From positions 1-64,000 of IMG/VR virus record IMGVR_UViG_3300002141_000156: 64,000 bases of DNA; one strand, given 5' to 3'. Each line of letters opens with the position of its first letter. Within the stretch, counting starts at the first letter, position 1. A model generated the notes under the pieces. The model saw only the letters and a list, made by a program, of their open reading frames with translations, made no database searches and was not told where the DNA came from. The translations under genes were made by a program, and so were the position numbers. This document shows positions 9,604 to 44,886 of this stretch, piece by piece. The stretch comes from a virus.

Positions 9604-9929
9604 TGTATTATATAAAAGTGAGTTAGTCCATTTTGTGTAATATACATAGTTTCACCATCCACCCTAAGATTTTCCGATAAAATTAAGCTCTTTATTCTTT
9701 TAACTAGATTTTGCTTAAAGGTTTCATCATTTAGCCTATCACCAAACACATATTTTAATGATTTTGACGAAAACTTTAGATTTTCAATAGTTAACTGCTT
9801 TTGTTTTATCTCAATAACCTTAATTATGTATTGGATTATGTCAAAGAGGATTGCAAGATCATCTTGTAAAACATCATCGGCATGAACATTAAGATAATAC
9901 TTTATTGGAAGATCAGAGCGCAGTTTCAT
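9600..9929 (-). CDS. hypothetical protein
   Basis: 109-aa ORF overlapping the recombinase C-half and the helicase. Confidence 0.65.
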   Translation of the reverse strand: MKLRSDLPIKYYLNVHADDVLQDDLAILFDIIQYIIKVIEIKQKQLTIENLKFSSKSLKYVFGDRLNDETFKQNLVKRIKSLILSENLRVDGETMYITQNGLTHFYIIQ

Positions 9930-10608
9930 CGTCTTTTAAATTTTCAAGTTCATCATTTTCTAATTCGTCAATTCCATCTTGCGTCTCTGGAAATTTAAAA
10001 GTAGGCTTGATAATATTCTCATCAAGGTCATGTAATACAGTATCTGTGAATAATTTAGCAGAGAAAAAATCTCTAACCGGAACCTCATCACCATTATGAC
10101 GAATGATATAATTTTTTGCCTGTATGCTAGGCTTTACATACCAAACTTCTCCGCTTACTTCAAATTTATGGCATTTTGTTTGGTCTTCTGGCTTAAGCTT
10201 TGAAAATTCCTTTTCAGTTAATTTAGAACCACGAACAACTCCGCAATTTTCCCAATTAACGAATTGTTCAAGACCAACATATGGATTCATGCCTTTATGG
10301 AAAGAAATATGGAATTCAATATCTAGTGGTTTAGCTAATCGGTTCTTTCTAGTCTTAGAACGAACAATAATTCCAGTAGTAGTTTTAGCCTCATCGCGTA
10401 GTGTACCTTTACTTAGCATTAAGATAATTGATGCTGAGAATTCAGGACCTCCACCACCAGACATACCTTTTGGAGTATATTGATCCATTGAATTATGGGA
10501 GACAACGGTGTTTGATAGAATGTAGTGGTGGACATCCTTAACTTGTATATCATATACTTTTTCAGAATTGTCAATGGTTTTAACTGATTTAATTTTTATT
10601 TTATTCAT
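9913..10608 (-). CDS. uvsX: split-intein C fragment fused to the C-terminal half of UvsX/RecA recombinase
   Basis: Start reassigned to ATG 10608. MNKIKIKSVK...VYDIQV...YILSNTVVSHN is followed by SMDQYTPKGMSGGGGPEFSASIILML...KNRLAKP (RecA L2 loop and downstream strands). Confidence 0.9.
   Translation of the reverse strand: MNKIKIKSVKTIDNSEKVYDIQVKDVHHYILSNTVVSHNSMDQYTPKGMSGGGGPEFSASIILMLSKGTLRDEAKTTTGIIVRSKTRKNRLAKPLDIEFHISFHKGMNPYVGLEQFVNWENCGVVRGSKLTEKEFSKLKPEDQTKCHKFEVSGEVWYVKPSIQAKNYIIRHNGDEVPVRDFFSAKLFTDTVLHDLDENIIKPTFKFPETQDGIDELENDELENLKDDETAL
10492..10608 (-). mobile_element. split intein C-fragment (39 aa)
   Basis: Block F VYDIQV, block G VVSHN, +1 Ser nucleophile, Lys-rich N-terminus. 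Confidence 0.92.
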
Positions 10609-11653
10609 AGCGTTTAAATAATATAGTATTTTTTTGTATATCAACTATTGCATAAATGAAGTTGATTCCTTTTTCTTTTACTGACTTTCTCTTATTTGGA
10701 TCAGCAAACTTATAAGTATAACTTGACTTAACTTCAATTACTAAATTTTTGGACTCAATATAGAAATCTGGTATGTATCTATGTTGCTTGCCGGTTTGAA
10801 TATATGTACAACCTATTTTTTGATACGATGCATACCCTATAGTTATTTCAGATTCATTAAACTTAGTTAATAAGTAATCGAGAAAAGTTGGTTCATAGCC
10901 TAATAAGTTAACTATTTTGCCACTAGGTAATATATATTTTTTGTACTTAAATTGTAGATGATATTCATTGAAAAACTTTTCTAAAAATTCATCATTTTGC
11001 ATGTGACTCGACACACCATATTTCTTAAGACATGTTTCTTTTATTTTATCTTTAGTTGCTTGTGTATGCATCACATTGTCAACACCATACTTTTCCAAGC
11101 AAGTCTGCTTACGTGCTTCTAGAGCTTGTTTAGAGCGTGCTTTATTTCCTTTTGAAACTTTTTCCTTAATTAATGAATTTTTATTCGGATTGTCATATCC
11201 GTAATTTAAAATGAAAGTTTCTATAACTTTTTTCCTACCTTCAATTGAATGAAGATTTGAAATATGTCCACCTCTCTCTAAATTTGTAGCTTCACGCTTT
11301 CTACGAATTTCAAGTTTCTCATCGTCCGTCCTTTTAGAAAAAGCTTTGACTAAAGAGGCTGACCTCTTTGCTTGCACTTCAGTTAATCCATTATTGAAAT
11401 CAGCTGCACATTTTTTGTTACAGAATTCAATTCGAATTTTTGGCAACGGTGTTCCACATTGCTTGCACTTAATTTGTTCAATCAATCTAGTTCGAATGTG
11501 AAACAATCGGAATGGAACATCTGAGCTTTCTGGAAGAAATGAAGTTTGTGAAATTATAAAATCATAGAATTCACGGTCCTTTCTAATTGCTTTGGATAAA
11601 GAAGCTAACGCTAAATTTGATGCTGCCATAATTCTTTGTAAAAAATCGTGCAT
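10601..11653 (-). CDS. free-standing putative homing endonuclease (PD-(D/E)XK type)
   Basis: CKQC/CNKKC Zn motif, repeated (K/E)TxLxKYGV-like helices, C-terminal YIPDFY...VIEVKS; lies between the two intein halves. Confidence 0.82.
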   Translation of the reverse strand: MHDFLQRIMAASNLALASLSKAIRKDREFYDFIISQTSFLPESSDVPFRLFHIRTRLIEQIKCKQCGTPLPKIRIEFCNKKCAADFNNGLTEVQAKRSASLVKAFSKRTDDEKLEIRRKREATNLERGGHISNLHSIEGRKKVIETFILNYGYDNPNKNSLIKEKVSKGNKARSKQALEARKQTCLEKYGVDNVMHTQATKDKIKETCLKKYGVSSHMQNDEFLEKFFNEYHLQFKYKKYILPSGKIVNLLGYEPTFLDYLLTKFNESEITIGYASYQKIGCTYIQTGKQHRYIPDFYIESKNLVIEVKSSYTYKFADPNKRKSVKEKGINFIYAIVDIQKNTILFKRYE

Positions 11654-11665
11654 GTCCTTTTATTT

Positions 11666-11674
11666 TTATTTATC
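11666..11674 (-). promoter_or_regulatory. putative late promoter GATAAATAA for the endonuclease
   Basis: Located in the 40-bp gap between the intein-N stop and the endonuclease ATG; identical to the motif upstream of the sheath gene. Confidence 0.55.
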
Positions 11675-11693
11675 ATAGATACGCAAGCATTTT

Positions 11694-12590
11694 TTATTTA
11701 CATATAATTTCAGATCCTTCGACTAAGTCAATTGCTTCGATCCAATGCTCTTCATTTGACCAATCATCTCCAACTAAGAACTTATGATTTGGCGTGCATT
11801 TAATAATCGTATCATCTTCTAATACGATTTCGATTAATTTTGCACAATCGTATTGAAATATGTTTTCAATCGGTTTTAATCCATCTAACGTTTCAACAAA
11901 TTGCCCCACCTCAACCTCAGAAATTTTAAGTTCACCATGATCTGTTAGAATCTTATGATCTCCTAAAATGCAGGCGTAAGTATGATTCGTGAAAATAAAT
12001 GGAACTTTAAGATTTGAAAGCTCAAGAGTAAAAGATTTGAATAGAGACCTCATCTCTTTAGAACGAAGACCCATATCTGCTGCATTTTTACCAGCATCCA
12101 TATCGCGTTTGCTCTTATCAGTATCTAACATACCTACTGAGTCGACAAATATTGCTGGTTTCAAACCTGGATTTTCTCGCATGGTTTCAATAAAGTCATT
12201 GATGAAAAATTTAACATCACTGATTAAACCCATACGTAAATATTTTAATCTGGCAAGATCTACTCCAAATTTTGTGTAGTCTGAACTATCAATTGCACCT
12301 TCGGTGTCAATATAGAAGACCATATAGTCTTTCTTTTGTAATTCACGAACTGCATTTAAACATAAGAAGGTTTTACCAGAGCCCGAGTCTCCAGCAATAC
12401 CAATACTTCGAGTATTTGGATAACCTCCGAAAACTGATCCGGACATTTGTGCATTTAATAGGTAGTTGCCGGTTGGGATATAATCATCGATATCTGAGAA
12501 TCCCATTAGTGTAATTTTGGTTTTTACTTTCTTTTCAAGCAAATCATTGAATTTGTTGAATGCTGAAAGTGCATCTTTTGCGCTTGCCAT
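11694..12590 (-). CDS. uvsX: N-terminal half of UvsX/RecA recombinase fused to split-intein N fragment
   Basis: PTGNYLLN..SGSVFGG, Walker A GDSGSGKT, YIDTEGA, Walker B IFVDSVG, MGLRSK, then FTNHTYA joined to intein start CILGD. Confidence 0.92.
   Translation of the reverse strand: MASAKDALSAFNKFNDLLEKKVKTKITLMGFSDIDDYIPTGNYLLNAQMSGSVFGGYPNTRSIGIAGDSGSGKTFLCLNAVRELQKKDYMVFYIDTEGAIDSSDYTKFGVDLARLKYLRMGLISDVKFFINDFIETMRENPGLKPAIFVDSVGMLDTDKSKRDMDAGKNAADMGLRSKEMRSLFKSFTLELSNLKVPFIFTNHTYACILGDHKILTDHGELKISEVEVGQFVETLDGLKPIENIFQYDCAKLIEIVLEDDTIIKCTPNHKFLVGDDWSNEEHWIEAIDLVEGSEIICK
11697..11972 (-). mobile_element. split intein N-fragment (92 aa)
   Basis: Block A CILGDHKILT, block B IKCTPNHKFL, WIEAIDLVEG; 21 D/E versus 7 K; ends in TAA. 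Confidence 0.92.
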
Positions 12591-12610
12591 AGACAGTATT
12601 TTTATTAATC

Positions 12611-12637
12611 TTCTACTTTATGATGAAGCAAAAGTTC
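12611..12637 (-). promoter_or_regulatory. putative early/middle promoter GAAC-N17-GTAGAA
   Basis: Matches a recurring bipartite motif; upstream of uvsX-N. Confidence 0.45.
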
Positions 12638-13204
12638 TTATTCTGAAAAATAAGAAAGTAATAATAGTGAACAGGAAAGTGCAATAGAATCTGATACTTC
12701 GCCTTTTAATAAGCGATTGAATCTCACCTTTTCAATTGATTGGATATTTGCGTTTGGATTGAAACCGGCTACTGAGAAGCCAGATGGATCTTTCATATAG
12801 TTACTTAAATTAATTCCATAACATCGATATTCCTTAGAAAAAGGAACGCCGTGCTTTACTTTACCTAAAAAGTAAATGTCATTAATATCAGTATCAGAAA
12901 GTCCAAGTTCATTATGAGCACAGTCTTCGACTGCATTATAATATGAATCAAATTTATTTTTATCAAATGTATCTGTGATGCAGGTAAAATCAACGCCGCC
13001 GAGTAAGTGGTCTTTGTATTTTGCAAGATAGATATTTTTGACTTGATCGTGTTCGTTTAAATCAAATGGAAGAATACAGATAGACTCCTCAGAACAGGCA
13101 AGTCTTCTAAATTTTCCACCATTACTAGAAAAAGAATACATCGAATATTTACCATCCGTGTATTCTTGCTTCTTGTCAAAACTTGTATTATCTTCGTGAT
13201 TCAT
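12638..13204 (-). CDS. Nudix-fold protein with degenerate Nudix box
   Basis: SICILPF...IYL followed by TDTFD...AVEDCAHNELGL, where the box is normally GxxxxxExxxxxxxREUxEExGU. Confidence 0.5.
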   Translation of the reverse strand: MNHEDNTSFDKKQEYTDGKYSMYSFSSNGGKFRRLACSEESICILPFDLNEHDQVKNIYLAKYKDHLLGGVDFTCITDTFDKNKFDSYYNAVEDCAHNELGLSDTDINDIYFLGKVKHGVPFSKEYRCYGINLSNYMKDPSGFSVAGFNPNANIQSIEKVRFNRLLKGEVSDSIALSCSLLLLSYFSE

Positions 13205-14414: not shown

Positions 14415-15839
14415 CTATAGTGAATTTTTTAGTTTTTTTATTTGACCTTGAGTACCAATACGTTCATTGTATAATCGGGTCAAGATTGTTCGAGCCGCAG
14501 AATCATTATCTGATGAAAATAGAGTATCGTTCTTGGTATGTATTTCACCACCTTTTAGTCGAACCTGATCACGCTTACCTAAGTAAGTATCTGGTGAAAT
14601 ATTAAACTGAATTTGAATATTTGGGTACATTGATGAAAAATCATAACATGCAATAGCATTATAGTGACCTGGAGTTGGTTTTTTAACATATGCTCCTTCA
14701 TATGTTGCAGTATTATCCTTTTGTTCTCCCCATGGAAGTTTCATCATTTTAAGATTCTTATTTAAGAACTCACGACACATTAGGATTTCAGCAACATACA
14801 CTGGACTAAATACTTTATTTACTTCGACTTGTGCAACGTTTGCAATTGAATATGCAACATCTAATAGCGAAAGCTTATCTTCAATTAACTTAACTAGAAC
14901 AACATCCACTACGTTATAGAGAGTAAATAAATATGTGTCTTTTTGGAATGCCAAGAATGATGGATAATCATGCTTGAGTTTATTTGCACCAAGCACAATA
15001 CCTGCAATATAATCCAATTTGTAATTTTCAACAACTTTATATGGTTTAAGTTTTTCAAACACTTGCATATAATCTAGAACTCCAAGGTGAGCAGGTATCT
15101 TATTTTTAGAAATAAGGGTACGAGACGGAAGATTAAGAGTAGTATCAATCTTCATGTTCTTACCGCGATTCATCAAATACTTCCAGTCAAAGTCAGTTAC
15201 ATTCCACCCAGTAACAAAAGATAGCTTCGGTACAATTTGATGGAAATAAAAGTTTAGAAGCTCAGTTTCAGTTTGGAAGAATTTATATTTGATTTTAAAA
15301 TCTTGCTGAAATAGAGCAGCATCTTGTGGGCGCAGTGGCTTTATTTTTCTAAAATAATCATTTACGTCTTTTTCCATACGTATTATATCATCAGCTGAAA
15401 GTCCAGCAGGATCGTCATCGTTATGTAAAATGGAAAGAATATATGTTACGTTATCTTCGTTACAGAATGAAATTAGTCCAACTGGCATTCTTGCACGTTC
15501 AGGATCAGGAAATGAATCATCAATTAATTTAATCTCAATATCAAGATATGTCTTCTTTGGAAAGTTGTCAAAATTATAGACAATTTCAAGTTCTTCAGCA
15601 GAAAGTTTCTCTTGCACTAATTCCTGAATTCGAAACTGAGTCATATATCTACCCTCAGTTGGACTCTTCTTCACATATTTGCCATCCCAATTTTTGGTGG
15701 CAGTTTTTGTTTTAGATTCAACCCAATTAAAGAGTTCATGATCGACTAATCTCTTTCTAATGAATTCGATTTTTCCTGCTTGATTATAGTAGGAAATAGC
15801 TAAGGTATTATCAGTAAGTACTTCTGCTCCAATTATCAT
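14415..15839 (-). CDS. family B DNA polymerase, N-terminal subunit (gp43A-like: exonuclease plus motif A)
   Basis: ExoI YLDIEI, ExoII GWNVTDFDWKYL, ExoIII YNVVDV, YEGAYVK, motif A YDFSSMYPNI; stops before motif B. Confidence 0.88.
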   Translation of the reverse strand: MIIGAEVLTDNTLAISYYNQAGKIEFIRKRLVDHELFNWVESKTKTATKNWDGKYVKKSPTEGRYMTQFRIQELVQEKLSAEELEIVYNFDNFPKKTYLDIEIKLIDDSFPDPERARMPVGLISFCNEDNVTYILSILHNDDDPAGLSADDIIRMEKDVNDYFRKIKPLRPQDAALFQQDFKIKYKFFQTETELLNFYFHQIVPKLSFVTGWNVTDFDWKYLMNRGKNMKIDTTLNLPSRTLISKNKIPAHLGVLDYMQVFEKLKPYKVVENYKLDYIAGIVLGANKLKHDYPSFLAFQKDTYLFTLYNVVDVVLVKLIEDKLSLLDVAYSIANVAQVEVNKVFSPVYVAEILMCREFLNKNLKMMKLPWGEQKDNTATYEGAYVKKPTPGHYNAIACYDFSSMYPNIQIQFNISPDTYLGKRDQVRLKGGEIHTKNDTLFSSDNDSAARTILTRLYNERIGTQGQIKKLKNSL

Positions 15840-19927: not shown

Positions 19928-20342
19928 TAGTTAGAGTTTTATAGATGTTACTTAATGAATGCTTTACATTTGATCTGATTTCAGTCTCCATAGCATCTCT
20001 ACGCTTTTCAACTTCAATATCGAATATATTTACAAGTAGTTGTTGCGTTTTTCCCCAAACAATAATATTGTAACTATATGTATGGTTAACAATTGTTATT
20101 TGATCTAATTGAATAATCACAAAGAGTTGGCTATCTTCTGCCTTGATATATCGTTTACCTGAAATTGGAGAGATTAAGAGAATACTATCTGCTTTAGAAA
20201 TTAATGCCTTACATACAGCAATACATTCTTTTTCATAGTCGCTAGGTTCTCTAGTATCTTTTGGTGTAAGTAATCGCAACCATTTAATTGCAAGGAACTG
20301 AAGACTTCGTCTAATTTTGTGTTTCATATTATTCAAATTCAT
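19914..20342 (-). CDS. hypothetical protein
   Basis: 142-aa ORF in operon. Confidence 0.7.
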   Translation of the reverse strand: MNLNNMKHKIRRSLQFLAIKWLRLLTPKDTREPSDYEKECIAVCKALISKADSILLISPISGKRYIKAEDSQLFVIIQLDQITIVNHTYSYNIIVWGKTQQLLVNIFDIEVEKRRDAMETEIRSNVKHSLSNIYKTLTSAPI

Positions 20343-20628
20343 CTAGACGAATTTCAGATTCATCATCTAAAATTGCAATAACTTCATTTGACATAATTAT
20401 GTAATGTGGCTCACCTTTGTAGTTGAGTTCAAGTCCAGCATACCGATTATGCAAGATAAGATCCCCTGGTTTTACTAGCATTGGATTATTAATTGAACCG
20501 TCTCCGCATGAAATAACAGTACCGACATTTGGTCGCTTTACCGCTTTCTCAGGCAACATAATTCCGCCTTGAGTTTTGGTTTCTTTTCCCTTTGGTTTAA
20601 CTAGGATTCTCTCGTATACTGGTTTCAT
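20329..20628 (-). CDS. groES: co-chaperonin GroES
   Basis: MKPVYERILVK, KTQGGIMLP mobile loop, VKPGD, YAGLE, VIAIL. Confidence 0.95.
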   Translation of the reverse strand: MKPVYERILVKPKGKETKTQGGIMLPEKAVKRPNVGTVISCGDGSINNPMLVKPGDLILHNRYAGLELNYKGEPHYIIMSNEVIAILDDESEIRLDEFE

Positions 20629-23558: not shown

Positions 23559-24307
23559 TATAGCGAATTCACTATTTTATCAACTTTATTAGAAAAAGTT
23601 GCGTCTGGGTAACGACCTAGGGCATATTTTACCCATGTTTCAAGTACAATTTGATATTCATCAGCGGTTATGTACTTAGATTGTACAAATGGCTGTAAAT
23701 AATCAGCAAATACATAATCTAGTGGAGTTTCAAGATATTGTGACCGAGCATACATGCCCTCAACCATTGACTCAACCTCATCGTTAAGTAAAAAATACTT
23801 ATAGTTCTTCTTTGCGGCACCGCGAGTCTTAGAATCTGATGGGTTTTCAGTAAATGGGTCTTTTTGAATTCCAACTTGATCGACATGGTTAAGTTCATGT
23901 GTCAAAATATCGATTATTCTAGCGTGCAGCATCTCATATAATCCAGGCTCGGCCTTTGGATTCATAATAAGAGTTATAATTATTTCAGGAATCATTAAAT
24001 CGCCACTATTGACTTTGGTATTTGCGTCAATACAATACCCATGCTTAGAATAATTAAGTTGCTCCCATGGTAAATTCTTAAAGTGTTCATCTGATTTAAC
24101 AGTTAATGTAGAATCTCTTCGTAATTCAAGTTTTAAATCAAATGAAAATGGCTCTCTAAATTCCATACCACCAAATGTCTCATAGTGATCTGACTCTTGG
24201 CCATGAGCAGCGCGTATCTTTTTAATTAGCTTTTGAGCAAGATCTTTAATAAAATCTTGTTTGAAGTCATCTGACTCGTTTATAAAAGAGGTGAATGATT
24301 TAAGCAC
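23558..24307 (-). CDS. putative internal head protein with HExxH metallopeptidase-like motif
   Basis: N-terminal LKSFTSFINE; THELNHVDQ followed by DEVES. Confidence 0.55.
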   Translation of the reverse strand: MLKSFTSFINESDDFKQDFIKDLAQKLIKKIRAAHGQESDHYETFGGMEFREPFSFDLKLELRRDSTLTVKSDEHFKNLPWEQLNYSKHGYCIDANTKVNSGDLMIPEIIITLIMNPKAEPGLYEMLHARIIDILTHELNHVDQVGIQKDPFTENPSDSKTRGAAKKNYKYFLLNDEVESMVEGMYARSQYLETPLDYVFADYLQPFVQSKYITADEYQIVLETWVKYALGRYPDATFSNKVDKIVNSL

Positions 24308-24798
24308 TATTTCTTATGTTTTATAAAGGTGACTTTCATGTCATCTGTTGTAGGCGAGCCGTCTTTTGTGAAGATGATTTGAATCTCTGGTTCACGAGTT
24401 CCAAAAATATTTGATGAAACTGCATTTTTTAACTTTTCAATAAATGGTAAATCATCGTCTCCAATATTTACTTTGTCTCCAGTTACGATATTTACTATAT
24501 TTGTACGACGGAGTTCAAGAACAGTATCTGAAATCTTATTTTTACTAGTAGACTGTATGTTTTTATCTGCCCACTCTTTAATTTCTTCAGGAGTAACCGA
24601 ATATGATGGAAAATCAACTGCCATGCTACCATCTGGGTATTTTCGTTTACGAATATTATCGCTATCTGCATCATCAATAAAGATAAAATGTAAGTGCTGT
24701 GCTTTCTTTGGAGCTGCAGAAGCTTCCATTCCTGGCATAGCTGCTGCCATGTCCTGTTCAAAAAGAAAGCTATAAAATCCTTTAATATGTTTCTTCAT
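24307..24798 (-). CDS. putative internal head protein
   Basis: N-terminal KKHIKGFYSFLFEQ; late motif GATAAATAA at 24824-24832. Confidence 0.55.
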   Translation of the reverse strand: MKKHIKGFYSFLFEQDMAAAMPGMEASAAPKKAQHLHFIFIDDADSDNIRKRKYPDGSMAVDFPSYSVTPEEIKEWADKNIQSTSKNKISDTVLELRRTNIVNIVTGDKVNIGDDDLPFIEKLKNAVSSNIFGTREPEIQIIFTKDGSPTTDDMKVTFIKHKK

Positions 24799-30703: not shown

Positions 30704-33111
<2,408 letters not shown>

Positions 33112-35374: not shown

Positions 35375-35800
35375 TTAGTGTGCACGATCAGTAATTTTTT
35401 CATAAGTTTTTTGTTTTAATTTAACCGCTTCTTGAATTAAAGGGTGCTTTTGAATGTGTTGCTTATGCTTAGTCGGCTGCTTTGTTTCAAAATAAGGAAG
35501 CAGCTTCTTATATAATTGTTCAATCTCTTCAATTGTAAGATTTGCTTTCTTGGCATTAATATCGATTGTACATGCAACTACATTACCTTCAATATAACCC
35601 TTTTTGGAATCGATACGATCCACACTGAAAGCTAATTTACCCTCATCTTCAAATACCGCTTCTGTATAGAAGCAATTTGTTCTTAAGAGCAATGATTTGA
35701 CCGTTTCAAATGAAAGGTCAAATTCAATGCCTCGACTTGTTGCACTCTGTTGAAGATTAATCATCTTCTTTGCGACTTCTATGTCTGGAATTTTCTTCAT
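35375..35800 (-). CDS. His-Me-finger-like protein resembling the T4 Srd N-terminal domain
   Basis: SATSRGIEFDLS, CFYT, SVDRIDSKKGYIEGNVV...N. Confidence 0.5.
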   Translation of the reverse strand: MKKIPDIEVAKKMINLQQSATSRGIEFDLSFETVKSLLLRTNCFYTEAVFEDEGKLAFSVDRIDSKKGYIEGNVVACTIDINAKKANLTIEEIEQLYKKLLPYFETKQPTKHKQHIQKHPLIQEAVKLKQKTYEKITDRAH

Positions 35801-44487: not shown

Positions 44488-44886
44488 ATGACTAGAAAGA
44501 AACGTGGTGACATACACTATATTAACAATAAAGATTTTACTCGATCAATTATTGAAAGTAAGACAGTGGATGTGCTAACTCCATTTGCAATCGATTGCTT
44601 TATCTCATTAGCAAATCGCGCAGTAAATCGTCTCTATTTTCAAGACTCTCGCGATCGCGAGGACTGTATTCAATCCGCAATTCTTGACTGTTTAAAATAT
44701 TGGAGAAGTTTTGATGAGACAAAGTCAAAGAATCCAAACGCGTTTGCATATTTTACCCAAATATGCAAAAATGGGTATGCAAAAGAGTGGAAAAAGATCC
44801 ATAAGAAGACTGGACTTGATAAAGATGAGCCGCTTGAATTTATTTCATTGGGGTATGGCGGAGAAAGTTCAATTTACAGCATTTAG
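44488..44886 (+). CDS. late-transcription sigma factor (T4 gp55-like)
   Basis: HYINNKDF, REDCIQ.A...CLKY...FD..KS.N..AFAYFTQI..N. Confidence 0.88.
   Translation: MTRKKRGDIHYINNKDFTRSIIESKTVDVLTPFAIDCFISLANRAVNRLYFQDSRDREDCIQSAILDCLKYWRSFDETKSKNPNAFAYFTQICKNGYAKEWKKIHKKTGLDKDEPLEFISLGYGGESSIYSI

Follow-up and report, generated by a model that had tools for sequence, protein, structure and literature searches.

The uvsX region of a lake phage, IMG/VR record IMGVR_UViG_3300002141_000156, carries a 1481-nucleotide (nt) insert that we consider very likely to be a mobile fractured-gene cassette: a class 1 mini-intein, split into parts of 92 and 39 amino acids (aa) around a gene for a homing endonuclease of the DUF7487 family. 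We analyzed a window of 64,000 nt, positions 1 to 64,000 of the record, which in full is 131 kilobases (kb) long. Here three consecutive open reading frames (ORFs) on the minus strand make up the locus: the N-terminal portion of UvsX recombinase fused to the N-terminal intein half (UvsX-N+IntN), an ORF of 350 aa, and the C-terminal intein half fused to the remainder of UvsX (IntC+UvsX-C). A first-pass annotation of the DNA had proposed a composite mobile element made of a split intein and a PD-(D/E)xK nuclease. This proposal holds up, since empty, occupied and nuclease-deleted alleles of the locus all exist.

Organization of the interrupted uvsX locus

The boundaries of the insert (10492..11972) were set with the uninterrupted uvsX allele of another locus, L003, which gives the junctions ...FTNHTYA|C(intein)...HN|SMDQY.... 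The features of the locus are as follows, (-) denoting the minus strand.

12590..11694 (-): UvsX-N+IntN ORF, 298 aa
11973..12590 (-): UvsX N-extein, residues 1-206, ending in ...FTNHTYA; Pfam RecA and PHROG UvsX-like matches, boundary set by the uninterrupted L003 allele
11694..11972 (-): IntN with its stop codon, 92 residues beginning at Cys1 (CILGDH...) and including the TPNH of block B; Intein_splicing and Hint matches
11693..11654 (-): leader of 40 nt between the UvsX-N+IntN ORF and the nuclease ORF
11639..11696 (-): leader hairpin, from folding energy, whose 3' arm pairs the nuclease AUG (11653..11651)
11666..11674 (-): GATAAATAA, late-promoter-like motif in the hairpin loop, its first base 21 nt before the nuclease ATG
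10601..11653 (-): free-standing DUF7487 nuclease gene, 350 aa, from the PF24308 match
11408..11467 (-): four-cysteine knuckle, C63xxC66...C78xxxC82, invariant in aligned relatives
10958..11326 (-): four helix-loop-helix KYGV repeats, about residues 110-232, DUF7487 profile positions 27-119
10604..10957 (-): predicted PD-(D/E)xK nuclease core, residues 233-350 (E254, D296, E307, K309), from motif and structure match
10601..10608 (-): ATGAATAA, 8-nt overlap of nuclease stop and IntC start, from the sequence
10608..9913 (-): IntC+UvsX-C ORF, matching the C part of Intein_splicing and PHROG recombinase / UvsX-like entries
10492..10608 (-): IntC, 39 residues, ending in ...VVSHN; Intein_splicing C-part match
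9913..10491 (-): UvsX C-extein with its stop codon, 192 residues beginning at Ser+1 (SMDQY...); protein identity to the C part of L003

The UvsX-N+IntN ORF matches Pfam RecA (E 2.4e-13), the PHROG UvsX-like entry (1.8e-40) and the N part of Intein_splicing (8.2e-6), while IntC aligns to positions 122-155 of the 155 in the latter profile (E 3.8e-5). All intein hallmarks are present, namely Cys1 (C207 of the N ORF), the TPNH of block B, the terminal HN (...SHN) and Ser+1. By these sequence criteria the intein is of class 1 and its splicing is predicted. The nearest solved structure to IntN is the gp41-1 split intein (PDB 6qaz, E 0.002). The joined exteins give the 398-aa uninterrupted UvsX of L003, and the C-extein protein is 100% identical to the C part of that protein. 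In an alignment with E. coli RecA (3cmu) the insertion junction falls between residues matched to ...IRM|KIG..., a position that we take, by RecA numbering, to be the start of the DNA-binding loop L2. RecA L2 is a site that both an endonuclease of a recA intron and inteins of recA are described to target (PMC3239194).

The 350-aa ORF fills the split point of the intein (11653..10601, minus strand), as the first-pass annotation had it, and the CxxC/CxxxC region, the TxLxKYGV-like repeats and the PD...EVKS core that had been read from its sequence were all located. The overlap between its stop and the IntC start was likewise found: the TAA (10603..10601) and the ATG of IntC (10608..10606) share ATGAATAA. 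The C-terminus of the nuclease, KRYE, is invariant in 17 of 17 relatives, which is expected if the overlapping IntC ATG constrains that end. The 131-kb record, 51% complete according to CheckV, holds a single copy of the nuclease family and a single intein.

Natural alleles of the locus

The intein-less site that the first-pass annotation had reconstructed is real. In a survey of 80 loci whose uvsX genes are closely related (N-extein identity of 85-100%), a check that had been suggested at the outset, both intact and split alleles were found, and 75 loci carry the uninterrupted gene (...FTNHTYA|SMDQY...). These 75 empty sites comprise 42 distinct 45-mers, which differ at wobble positions only. 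The split intein together with the nuclease is present in three loci (L023, L025 and L062, the last on the same contig as L002); one more, L024, enters IntN and then reaches the end of its contig. In L015 the split intein is intact, with its halves 20 nt apart. Because the last bases of this spacer read FKRYE and so keep the last codons of the nuclease with its invariant C-terminus, we regard L015 as a nuclease-deletion derivative.

The window and L003 are 99.7% identical over 4111 nt on one side of the site and 99.6% identical over 3498 nt on the other (about 7.6 kb), and L003 lacks exactly the 1481-nt insert. The left flank contains 14 differences, four of which are within the last 28 nt before the site (12000, 11979, 11976 and 11973); these four are all synonymous and three of them are at -7, -4 and -1. 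On the right flank the nearest difference is 413 nt off. In 28 nt, 0.095 differences are expected (P ~3e-6 by post-hoc Poisson arithmetic). Either a short co-conversion tract or a change of the target site would fit these substitutions. A gradient of mismatches away from the junction in the C-extein of L083 was also considered as evidence of co-conversion; it was dropped because protein conservation falls along the same stretch.

Between the window and L083 the nuclease is 94.1% identical, with a synonymous divergence (dS) of 0.21, compared with 76.1% and a dS of 1.26 for the C-extein. In the comparison with L136, dS is 0.18 for the nuclease, 0.32 and 0.39 for the exteins and 0.56 for IntN. 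Public sequencing data contain both states of the locus. One contig from run X1 spans the entire occupied locus, and in runs X5 and X7, which belong to two other studies, contigs link 10492 to 11980 through six letters, which is the empty allele. Since X5 also holds a 1177-nt contig over a diverged nuclease, the occupied and empty states occur in one sample. A megablast search of cultured phages gave no match to the 3.1-kb region. Mobility of the cassette is well supported by these comparisons of alleles, albeit indirectly.

These data also bear on the possibility that the nuclease is a passive or decaying passenger, in which case the cassette would be inherited only vertically and the empty alleles would reflect old loss. 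Some copies of the family do look broken: in L127, L123, L185, L225 and L242 pieces of DUF7487 are found in a second frame beside the main match, which suggests frameshifted, decaying nuclease genes. In addition, the leader hairpin of the window has two stem-weakening changes relative to L136. However, the ORF of the window is intact, its catalytic residues are invariant, and a ratio of nonsynonymous to synonymous divergence (dN/dS) of 0.14-0.16 indicates that the nuclease is under purifying selection. Furthermore, the 99.7%-identical genome of L003 is without the insert, and in L083 the divergence of the nuclease is far below that of the extein. It is most improbable that the nuclease is a mere passenger.

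A predicted PD-(D/E)xK nuclease with a repeat-containing N-terminal half

The top Pfam match of the nuclease is DUF7487 (PF24308; E 5.9e-39, 134.7 bits versus a cut-off of 27), followed by Tn7_TnsA-like_N (E 1e-4; 23.2 bits, below the 26.5 cut-off) and Phage_endo_I (0.012). In PHROGs the N half matches "homing endonuclease" entries and the C half one "endonuclease" entry. The first-pass annotation had noted that the motifs usually linked to inteins are missing. This is indeed the case: no LAGLIDADG, HNH, GIY-YIG, Vsr or DUF559 family of Pfam was matched at E<=0.1, and the EDxHD motif is absent from the sequence, the fold being common to EDxHD and Vsr-like enzymes at the superfold level only.

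The nuclease contains P295-D296 and E307-V308-K309-S310. An alignment of 42 sequences shows no variation at E254, D296 or K309 and a conservation of 90% or more at E307. The structure prediction that had been proposed as a further check gave PD-(D/E)xK fold matches for residues 236-350. The AlphaFold2 model of the nuclease has a mean predicted local distance difference test score (pLDDT) of 90.6, and a comparison of this C-terminal region with 48,161 chains by VIA-align returned PD-(D/E)xK folds as all of the top matches. The best of these was TnsA (1t0f_A; Z 8.2, root-mean-square deviation (rmsd) 3.7, 123 residues aligned), a Z that by the tool's own note is only at the edge of meaning. Further matches were Vsr (Z 6.7), I-Bth0305I (3r3p_B; Z 5.9, 80 aligned, 20% identity), Hjc (Z 5.9) and I-Ssp6803I (Z 4.7). 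The weak rows from Foldseek, namely the influenza and bunyavirus cap-snatching endonucleases and XisH, are all PD-(D/E)xK as well. A sequence search of the PDB with the protein returned nothing, and a profile search returned two chains only (E 0.24 and 0.43). Motif and model together place the nuclease, by prediction, in the PD-(D/E)xK superfamily with a canonical E..PD..ExK core.

All 17 close relatives and all 13 uvsX-associated relatives that were aligned retain C63, C66, C78 and C82; the knuckle that they form would bind a metal, presumably Zn. Downstream of it are four repeats of the TxLxKYGV type. Because the N half, KYGV repeats included, has no fold match, we only infer that it binds DNA. 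Two fusions support this role. In Salmonella phage Mutine a gene flanked by those for tail tube and tail sheath (L164 2234..4009) encodes a protein of 591 aa, annotated as a homing endonuclease, in which DUF7487 repeats are joined to a DUF559/MTES_1575 (Vsr-like) core, so that the KYGV repeat array is common to two nuclease cores. In a neighbor cluster of the Atlas, NUMOD3 is joined to a TnsA-like core. Both represent the module shuffling that is typical of phage homing endonucleases.

Genomic settings of DUF7487 relatives

A protein database search returned 1583 relatives of the nuclease at E<=1e-5, and the ORF is therefore not a chance reading frame. At least 565 stretches encoding a relative were found in a scan of IMG/VR, many of them on contigs of giant-virus metagenome-assembled genomes (MAGs), and the Atlas clusters of the family are viral (Uroviricota and Nucleocytoviricota).

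We surveyed the gene context in 160 loci, 80 from metagenomes and 80 from viruses. Fractured uvsX genes account for 14 of the metagenome loci (L083, L084, L085, L095, L097, L098, L099, L107, L122, L127, L135, L136, L149 and L158); although extein identity to the window is only 34-38% for the distant members of this group, they share its insertion point. In L160 (1458..1937) a DUF7487 relative is followed by IntC fused to the adenylation domain of an NAD-dependent DNA ligase, which is a second split-intein host gene for DUF7487 nucleases. The relative in L159 lies between SbcD- and SbcC-like genes, and in most other metagenome loci the neighbors have no Pfam matches. In the viral set four loci are fractured uvsX genes (L175-L177 and L253), and the 126 neighbor ORFs scanned at the other 76 gave no intein match at E<=1e-5. 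Neighbors of the nuclease in these 76 loci are tail sheath, gp15, SbcD/SbcC, ATP ligase, helicase or ankyrin genes. Giant-virus-like contexts are seen in L089, in L128, L148 and L156, and in many GVMAG contigs among L178-L254, with genes for papain-like protease, Ras-family GTPase, MSV199/T5orf172, ankyrin and kinase proteins nearby. The DUF7487 family is mainly free-standing, and the split intein of uvsX is one recurrent home.

A nuclease of such a family could also nick or cut elsewhere in uvsX or in a neighboring gene, like the T4 seg and mob enzymes, and act mainly in marker exclusion against competing phages. That most relatives are free-standing neighbors of conserved genes, namely those for tail sheath, gp15, SbcD/SbcC, ligase and helicases, would agree with this, as would the clustering of substitutions on the N-extein side of the junction only. 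T4 SegA, itself free-standing, cuts uvsX (PMC2988022). However, presence and absence concern precisely the insert of intein and nuclease, at one codon boundary, and the same boundary is used in the distant uvsX genes mentioned above. Cutting away from the insertion site is therefore an unlikely main activity of the nuclease.

The nuclease leader: candidate late-gene motif and hairpin

The motif that the first-pass annotation had seen in the 40-nt leader, GATAAATAA, is found at 11674..11666. The phage encodes a gp55-like late sigma factor (44488..44886, plus strand; E 3.9e-17). In the 131-kb record NATAAATA occurs 86 times, counting both strands. In the 60 nt upstream of 144 crudely called ORFs it was found 34 times in sense and 3 times in antisense orientation, and in 1000 shuffles of these upstream sequences the mean was 9.7 and the maximum 21, versus the 34 observed. 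The sense sites are mostly at -35..-21 (27/34), and the genes marked by NATAAATA include those for tail sheath, baseplate wedge, an endolysin-like protein and other large genes of the structural block. In the minus-strand replication block the motif is present only before the nuclease and before ORF 24307..24798. The apparent late-gene motif of this phage (131-kb record; in the window 29788, 33991, 37253 and 45621) is (G/A)ATAAATAA and not the TATAAATA of T4, which is depleted in the window (4 versus 11.15 expected). Position and strand bias before structural genes support (G/A)ATAAATA as the late-gene signal; the leader motif fits this signal, and its reading as a late promoter is plausible. 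In T4, late transcripts start about 6 nt after the promoter motif. Beyond the gp55-like ORF, the 131-kb record (G000) has two sigma-factor-like ORFs, at 78554..79180 and 115278..116159 (PHROG E 2.6e-7 and 4e-29).

The leader hairpin of the window has a folding energy (dG) of -8.6 kcal/mol (z -2.2). Values in five close relatives (L136, L083, L085, L002 and L023) range from -12.4 to -21.7 kcal/mol, including -18.9 in L136, -21.7 in L002 and -17.7 in L023. Equivalent hairpins are formed by unrelated sequences in distant loci (L122 -23.5, L149 -21.4, L107 -15.4, L158 -9.6 and L135 -7.3). The z value is -1.9 or lower in 12 of the 13 leaders folded, the exception being L099, and the nuclease AUG is paired in 11 of 14. 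Compared with L136, the window has two substitutions that weaken the stem (11677..11687 and 11645..11653; dG -8.6 versus -18.9), one of which turns codon 2 of the nuclease from Gln to His. An RNAalifold analysis of six close leaders detected a compensatory change in only 2 of 16 pairs, but so few and such similar sequences carry no weight. Stronger evidence comes from the hairpins that distant loci form independently.

A scan of 9800..12800 found no terminator-like sites. The hairpin and a U-run had been considered as a terminator, a reading rejected on account of the 19-nt loop, the missing U-run in L023 and the empty scan. A MotA box at leader AAATGCTTGC was rejected as well, since TGCTT is not kept in L002 or L023.

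The first-pass annotation had assigned the leader a role in recombinase supply: the late promoter and the 8-nt overlap would raise IntC-UvsX-C and the downstream helicase late in infection, serving the phage and tying recombinase assembly to the gp55 programme. The motif and the stop/start overlap are both real, no terminator-like site lies downstream, and Dassa et al. suggest transcription of the downstream gene part from an endonuclease promoter (PMC2677866). Nevertheless, 75 of the 80 related uvsX genes are without any cassette, and L015 is without nuclease and leader, yet its split intein is intact. Spliced UvsX also needs the N half, which is not encoded by a transcript starting inside the cassette, and a surplus of the C half yields no extra UvsX. 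In addition, the hairpin whose loop contains the motif includes the nuclease start codon in its stem, as would suit control of the nuclease itself. A hairpin with a late promoter is known to restrict translation of homing endonucleases to late times (PMC2988022). Together, these results make it very unlikely that the cassette serves to raise the supply of UvsX.

Proposed homing cycle

We propose that the nuclease would bind the conserved L2-loop codons of an empty uvsX allele by means of its Zn knuckle and KYGV repeats, and that the E..PD..ExK core would cut this allele. In a mixed infection, recombinational repair would copy the whole cassette and a short flank into the cut genome. Protein trans-splicing would join the UvsX halves, and the host gene would stay functional. 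On read-through transcripts from upstream the leader hairpin would pair the nuclease start codon, while transcription from a gp55-type late promoter, located in the hairpin loop, would begin at ~11661. The latter transcripts would be without the 5' arm of the hairpin, so that the nuclease would be made late.

Several observations weigh against this proposal. In the pair of window and L003, gain of the insert is indistinguishable from its precise loss, and metatranscriptome contigs (run X15) cover parts of the exteins only, with neither the insert nor the junction. A split intein harbors the nuclease relative in only 19 of the 160 loci sampled, the other 141 being outside inteins. As to the nuclease, the best structural match has the borderline score given above, Foldseek found nothing at E<=0.001 when the full model was compared with the PDB, and the N-terminal half modelled alone matched only long helices and coiled coils (best Z 4.1). 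As to the leader, a plain count of GATAAATA in the window shows no enrichment (7 versus 7.64 expected) and L002 has GATATATA in place of the motif. The hairpin of the window is weak, with 4 of 200 shuffles folding equally well, and the AUG is unpaired in 3 of 14 leaders (L097, where the start call is doubtful, L098 and L099).

A broader and more tentative idea is that DUF7487 is a large unrecognized family of free-standing homing endonucleases in phages and giant viruses. Its tandem KYGV repeats of 30-35 residues might constitute an array of DNA-reading modules to which different cores (PD-ExK here, DUF559/Vsr-like in Mutine) can be attached, and the synonymous uvsX changes at -1/-4/-7 might mark recognition bases in a contest between homing and target-site escape. 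We regard this combination as possible rather than probable.

The locus adds DUF7487, a family without a published function, to the enzymes that ride in split inteins, and it provides a concrete candidate target site. The population data also show, within a single gene, the stages of a homing cycle: sites that are empty, sites that are occupied, loss of the nuclease, and its presence in another gene background. These stages could be followed in time-series metagenomes. Composed of two short partners (92+39 residues, Cys1/Ser+1) and naturally split, the intein is a relative of gp41-1, which is widely used in protein engineering, and the KYGV repeats could be useful for designed nucleases if it is true that they read DNA modularly.

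Other features of the genome

The family-B DNA polymerase ORF of the window (14415..15839, minus strand) ends after about 470 residues and comprises the exonuclease part but only the beginning of the polymerase domain. The same shortening is seen in L002 (416..1798), and the 131-kb record has no second DNA_pol_B match. The polymerase looks split, with a second half that is encoded at another place, perhaps in the half of the genome that is missing. A GroEL-like chaperonin (30704..32350, minus strand; PHROG E 1.4e-158) and a GroES-like co-chaperonin (20329..20628, minus strand; E 1.9e-18) are encoded in the window. A 141-aa ORF (35375..35800, minus strand) has matches, with E values from 1.9e-24 to 2.1e-13, to PHROGs for Srd anti-sigma factor, HNH endonuclease and endonuclease VII, and could be a further small nuclease gene of the replication block.

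Comparison with known systems

The first-pass annotation had treated the arrangement as unusual; it is in fact the published layout of fractured genes as described in Dassa 2009 (PMC2677866). In every layout feature the locus, as read from its sequence, is a fractured gene in this sense: two host ORFs on the same strand are fused to IntN and IntC, with a free-standing endonuclease between them. The leader measures 40 nt (27-51 in Dassa 2009) and the overlap of endonuclease and IntC 8 bp (6-69). A leader hairpin and a late-promoter-like element are common to both, and the endonuclease-lost allele, L015 here, has its counterpart in gp41-7. The host genes given in the text of that paper are gp41, IMPDH, DnaE, NrdA, NrdJ, ligase, terminase and one unknown, with uvsX merely as a neighbor, and the nucleases are GIY-YIG or Vsr-like, unlike the DUF7487 enzyme of the window (PMC2677866).

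The best structural match, the N-terminal nuclease domain of TnsA from Tn7, comes from a transposon, a context that is not seen at the window locus. The characterized PD-(D/E)xK homing endonuclease I-Ssp6803I resembles the nuclease in motif class and fold (2ost_A; rmsd 3.2, 79 aligned), although this match is weaker than that to TnsA. I-Ssp6803I is small, intron-encoded and without an added DNA-binding region. I-Bth0305I and the EDxHD enzymes share with the window nuclease an N-terminal DNA-binding region (presumed here) and a C-terminal core of the restriction-endonuclease fold; I-Bth0305I targets RecA-family L2-loop codons, the presumptive target here as well, and the EDxHD family is found in fractured genes (PMC3239194). 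The window nuclease differs in having E..PD..ExK instead of EDxHD, and a Zn knuckle and KYGV repeats instead of NUMOD2.

With regard to expression, what is described for I-TevI, segB and Aeh1 mobE is a hairpin that blocks initiation on early and middle read-through transcripts and a late promoter placed so that late transcripts drop the 5' arm (PMC2988022); the same is predicted here. The leader of the window differs from these cases in that it pairs the start codon itself and in that its motif is (G/A)ATAAATA and not TATAAATA. The intein is, like gp41-1, a naturally split mini-intein of a phage fractured gene, with low identity to it, a different host gene and insertion site, and Cys1 and Ser+1 as nucleophiles.

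Fractured uvsX is not rare. Escherichia phage HY03 encodes UvsX-N+Hint, an endonuclease of 240 aa and IntC+UvsX-C, which its annotation treats as three unrelated proteins; its nuclease carries NUMOD3, not DUF7487. In Prevotella phage Lak-B5 (L170 2896..6852), read with TAG as Gln, uvsX is fractured by a split intein around a 463-aa ORF that is Vsr-like by eye only. This intein lies about 12 residues further into L2 than that of the window, and a DUF7487-like ORF with Cys knuckle and KYGV repeats is located directly downstream of uvsX-C. In addition, 34 records of cultured phages match the UvsX-N+IntN ORF of the window over at least 80% of its length, and these matches probably reach into IntN. 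In the literature searched we found no publication naming DUF7487, none that places a canonical PD-(D/E)xK or TnsA-like enzyme within a split intein and, in passages and search listings, no description of a uvsX intein. The architecture of the locus is already known; what is new is the nuclease family within a split intein, together with the population evidence.

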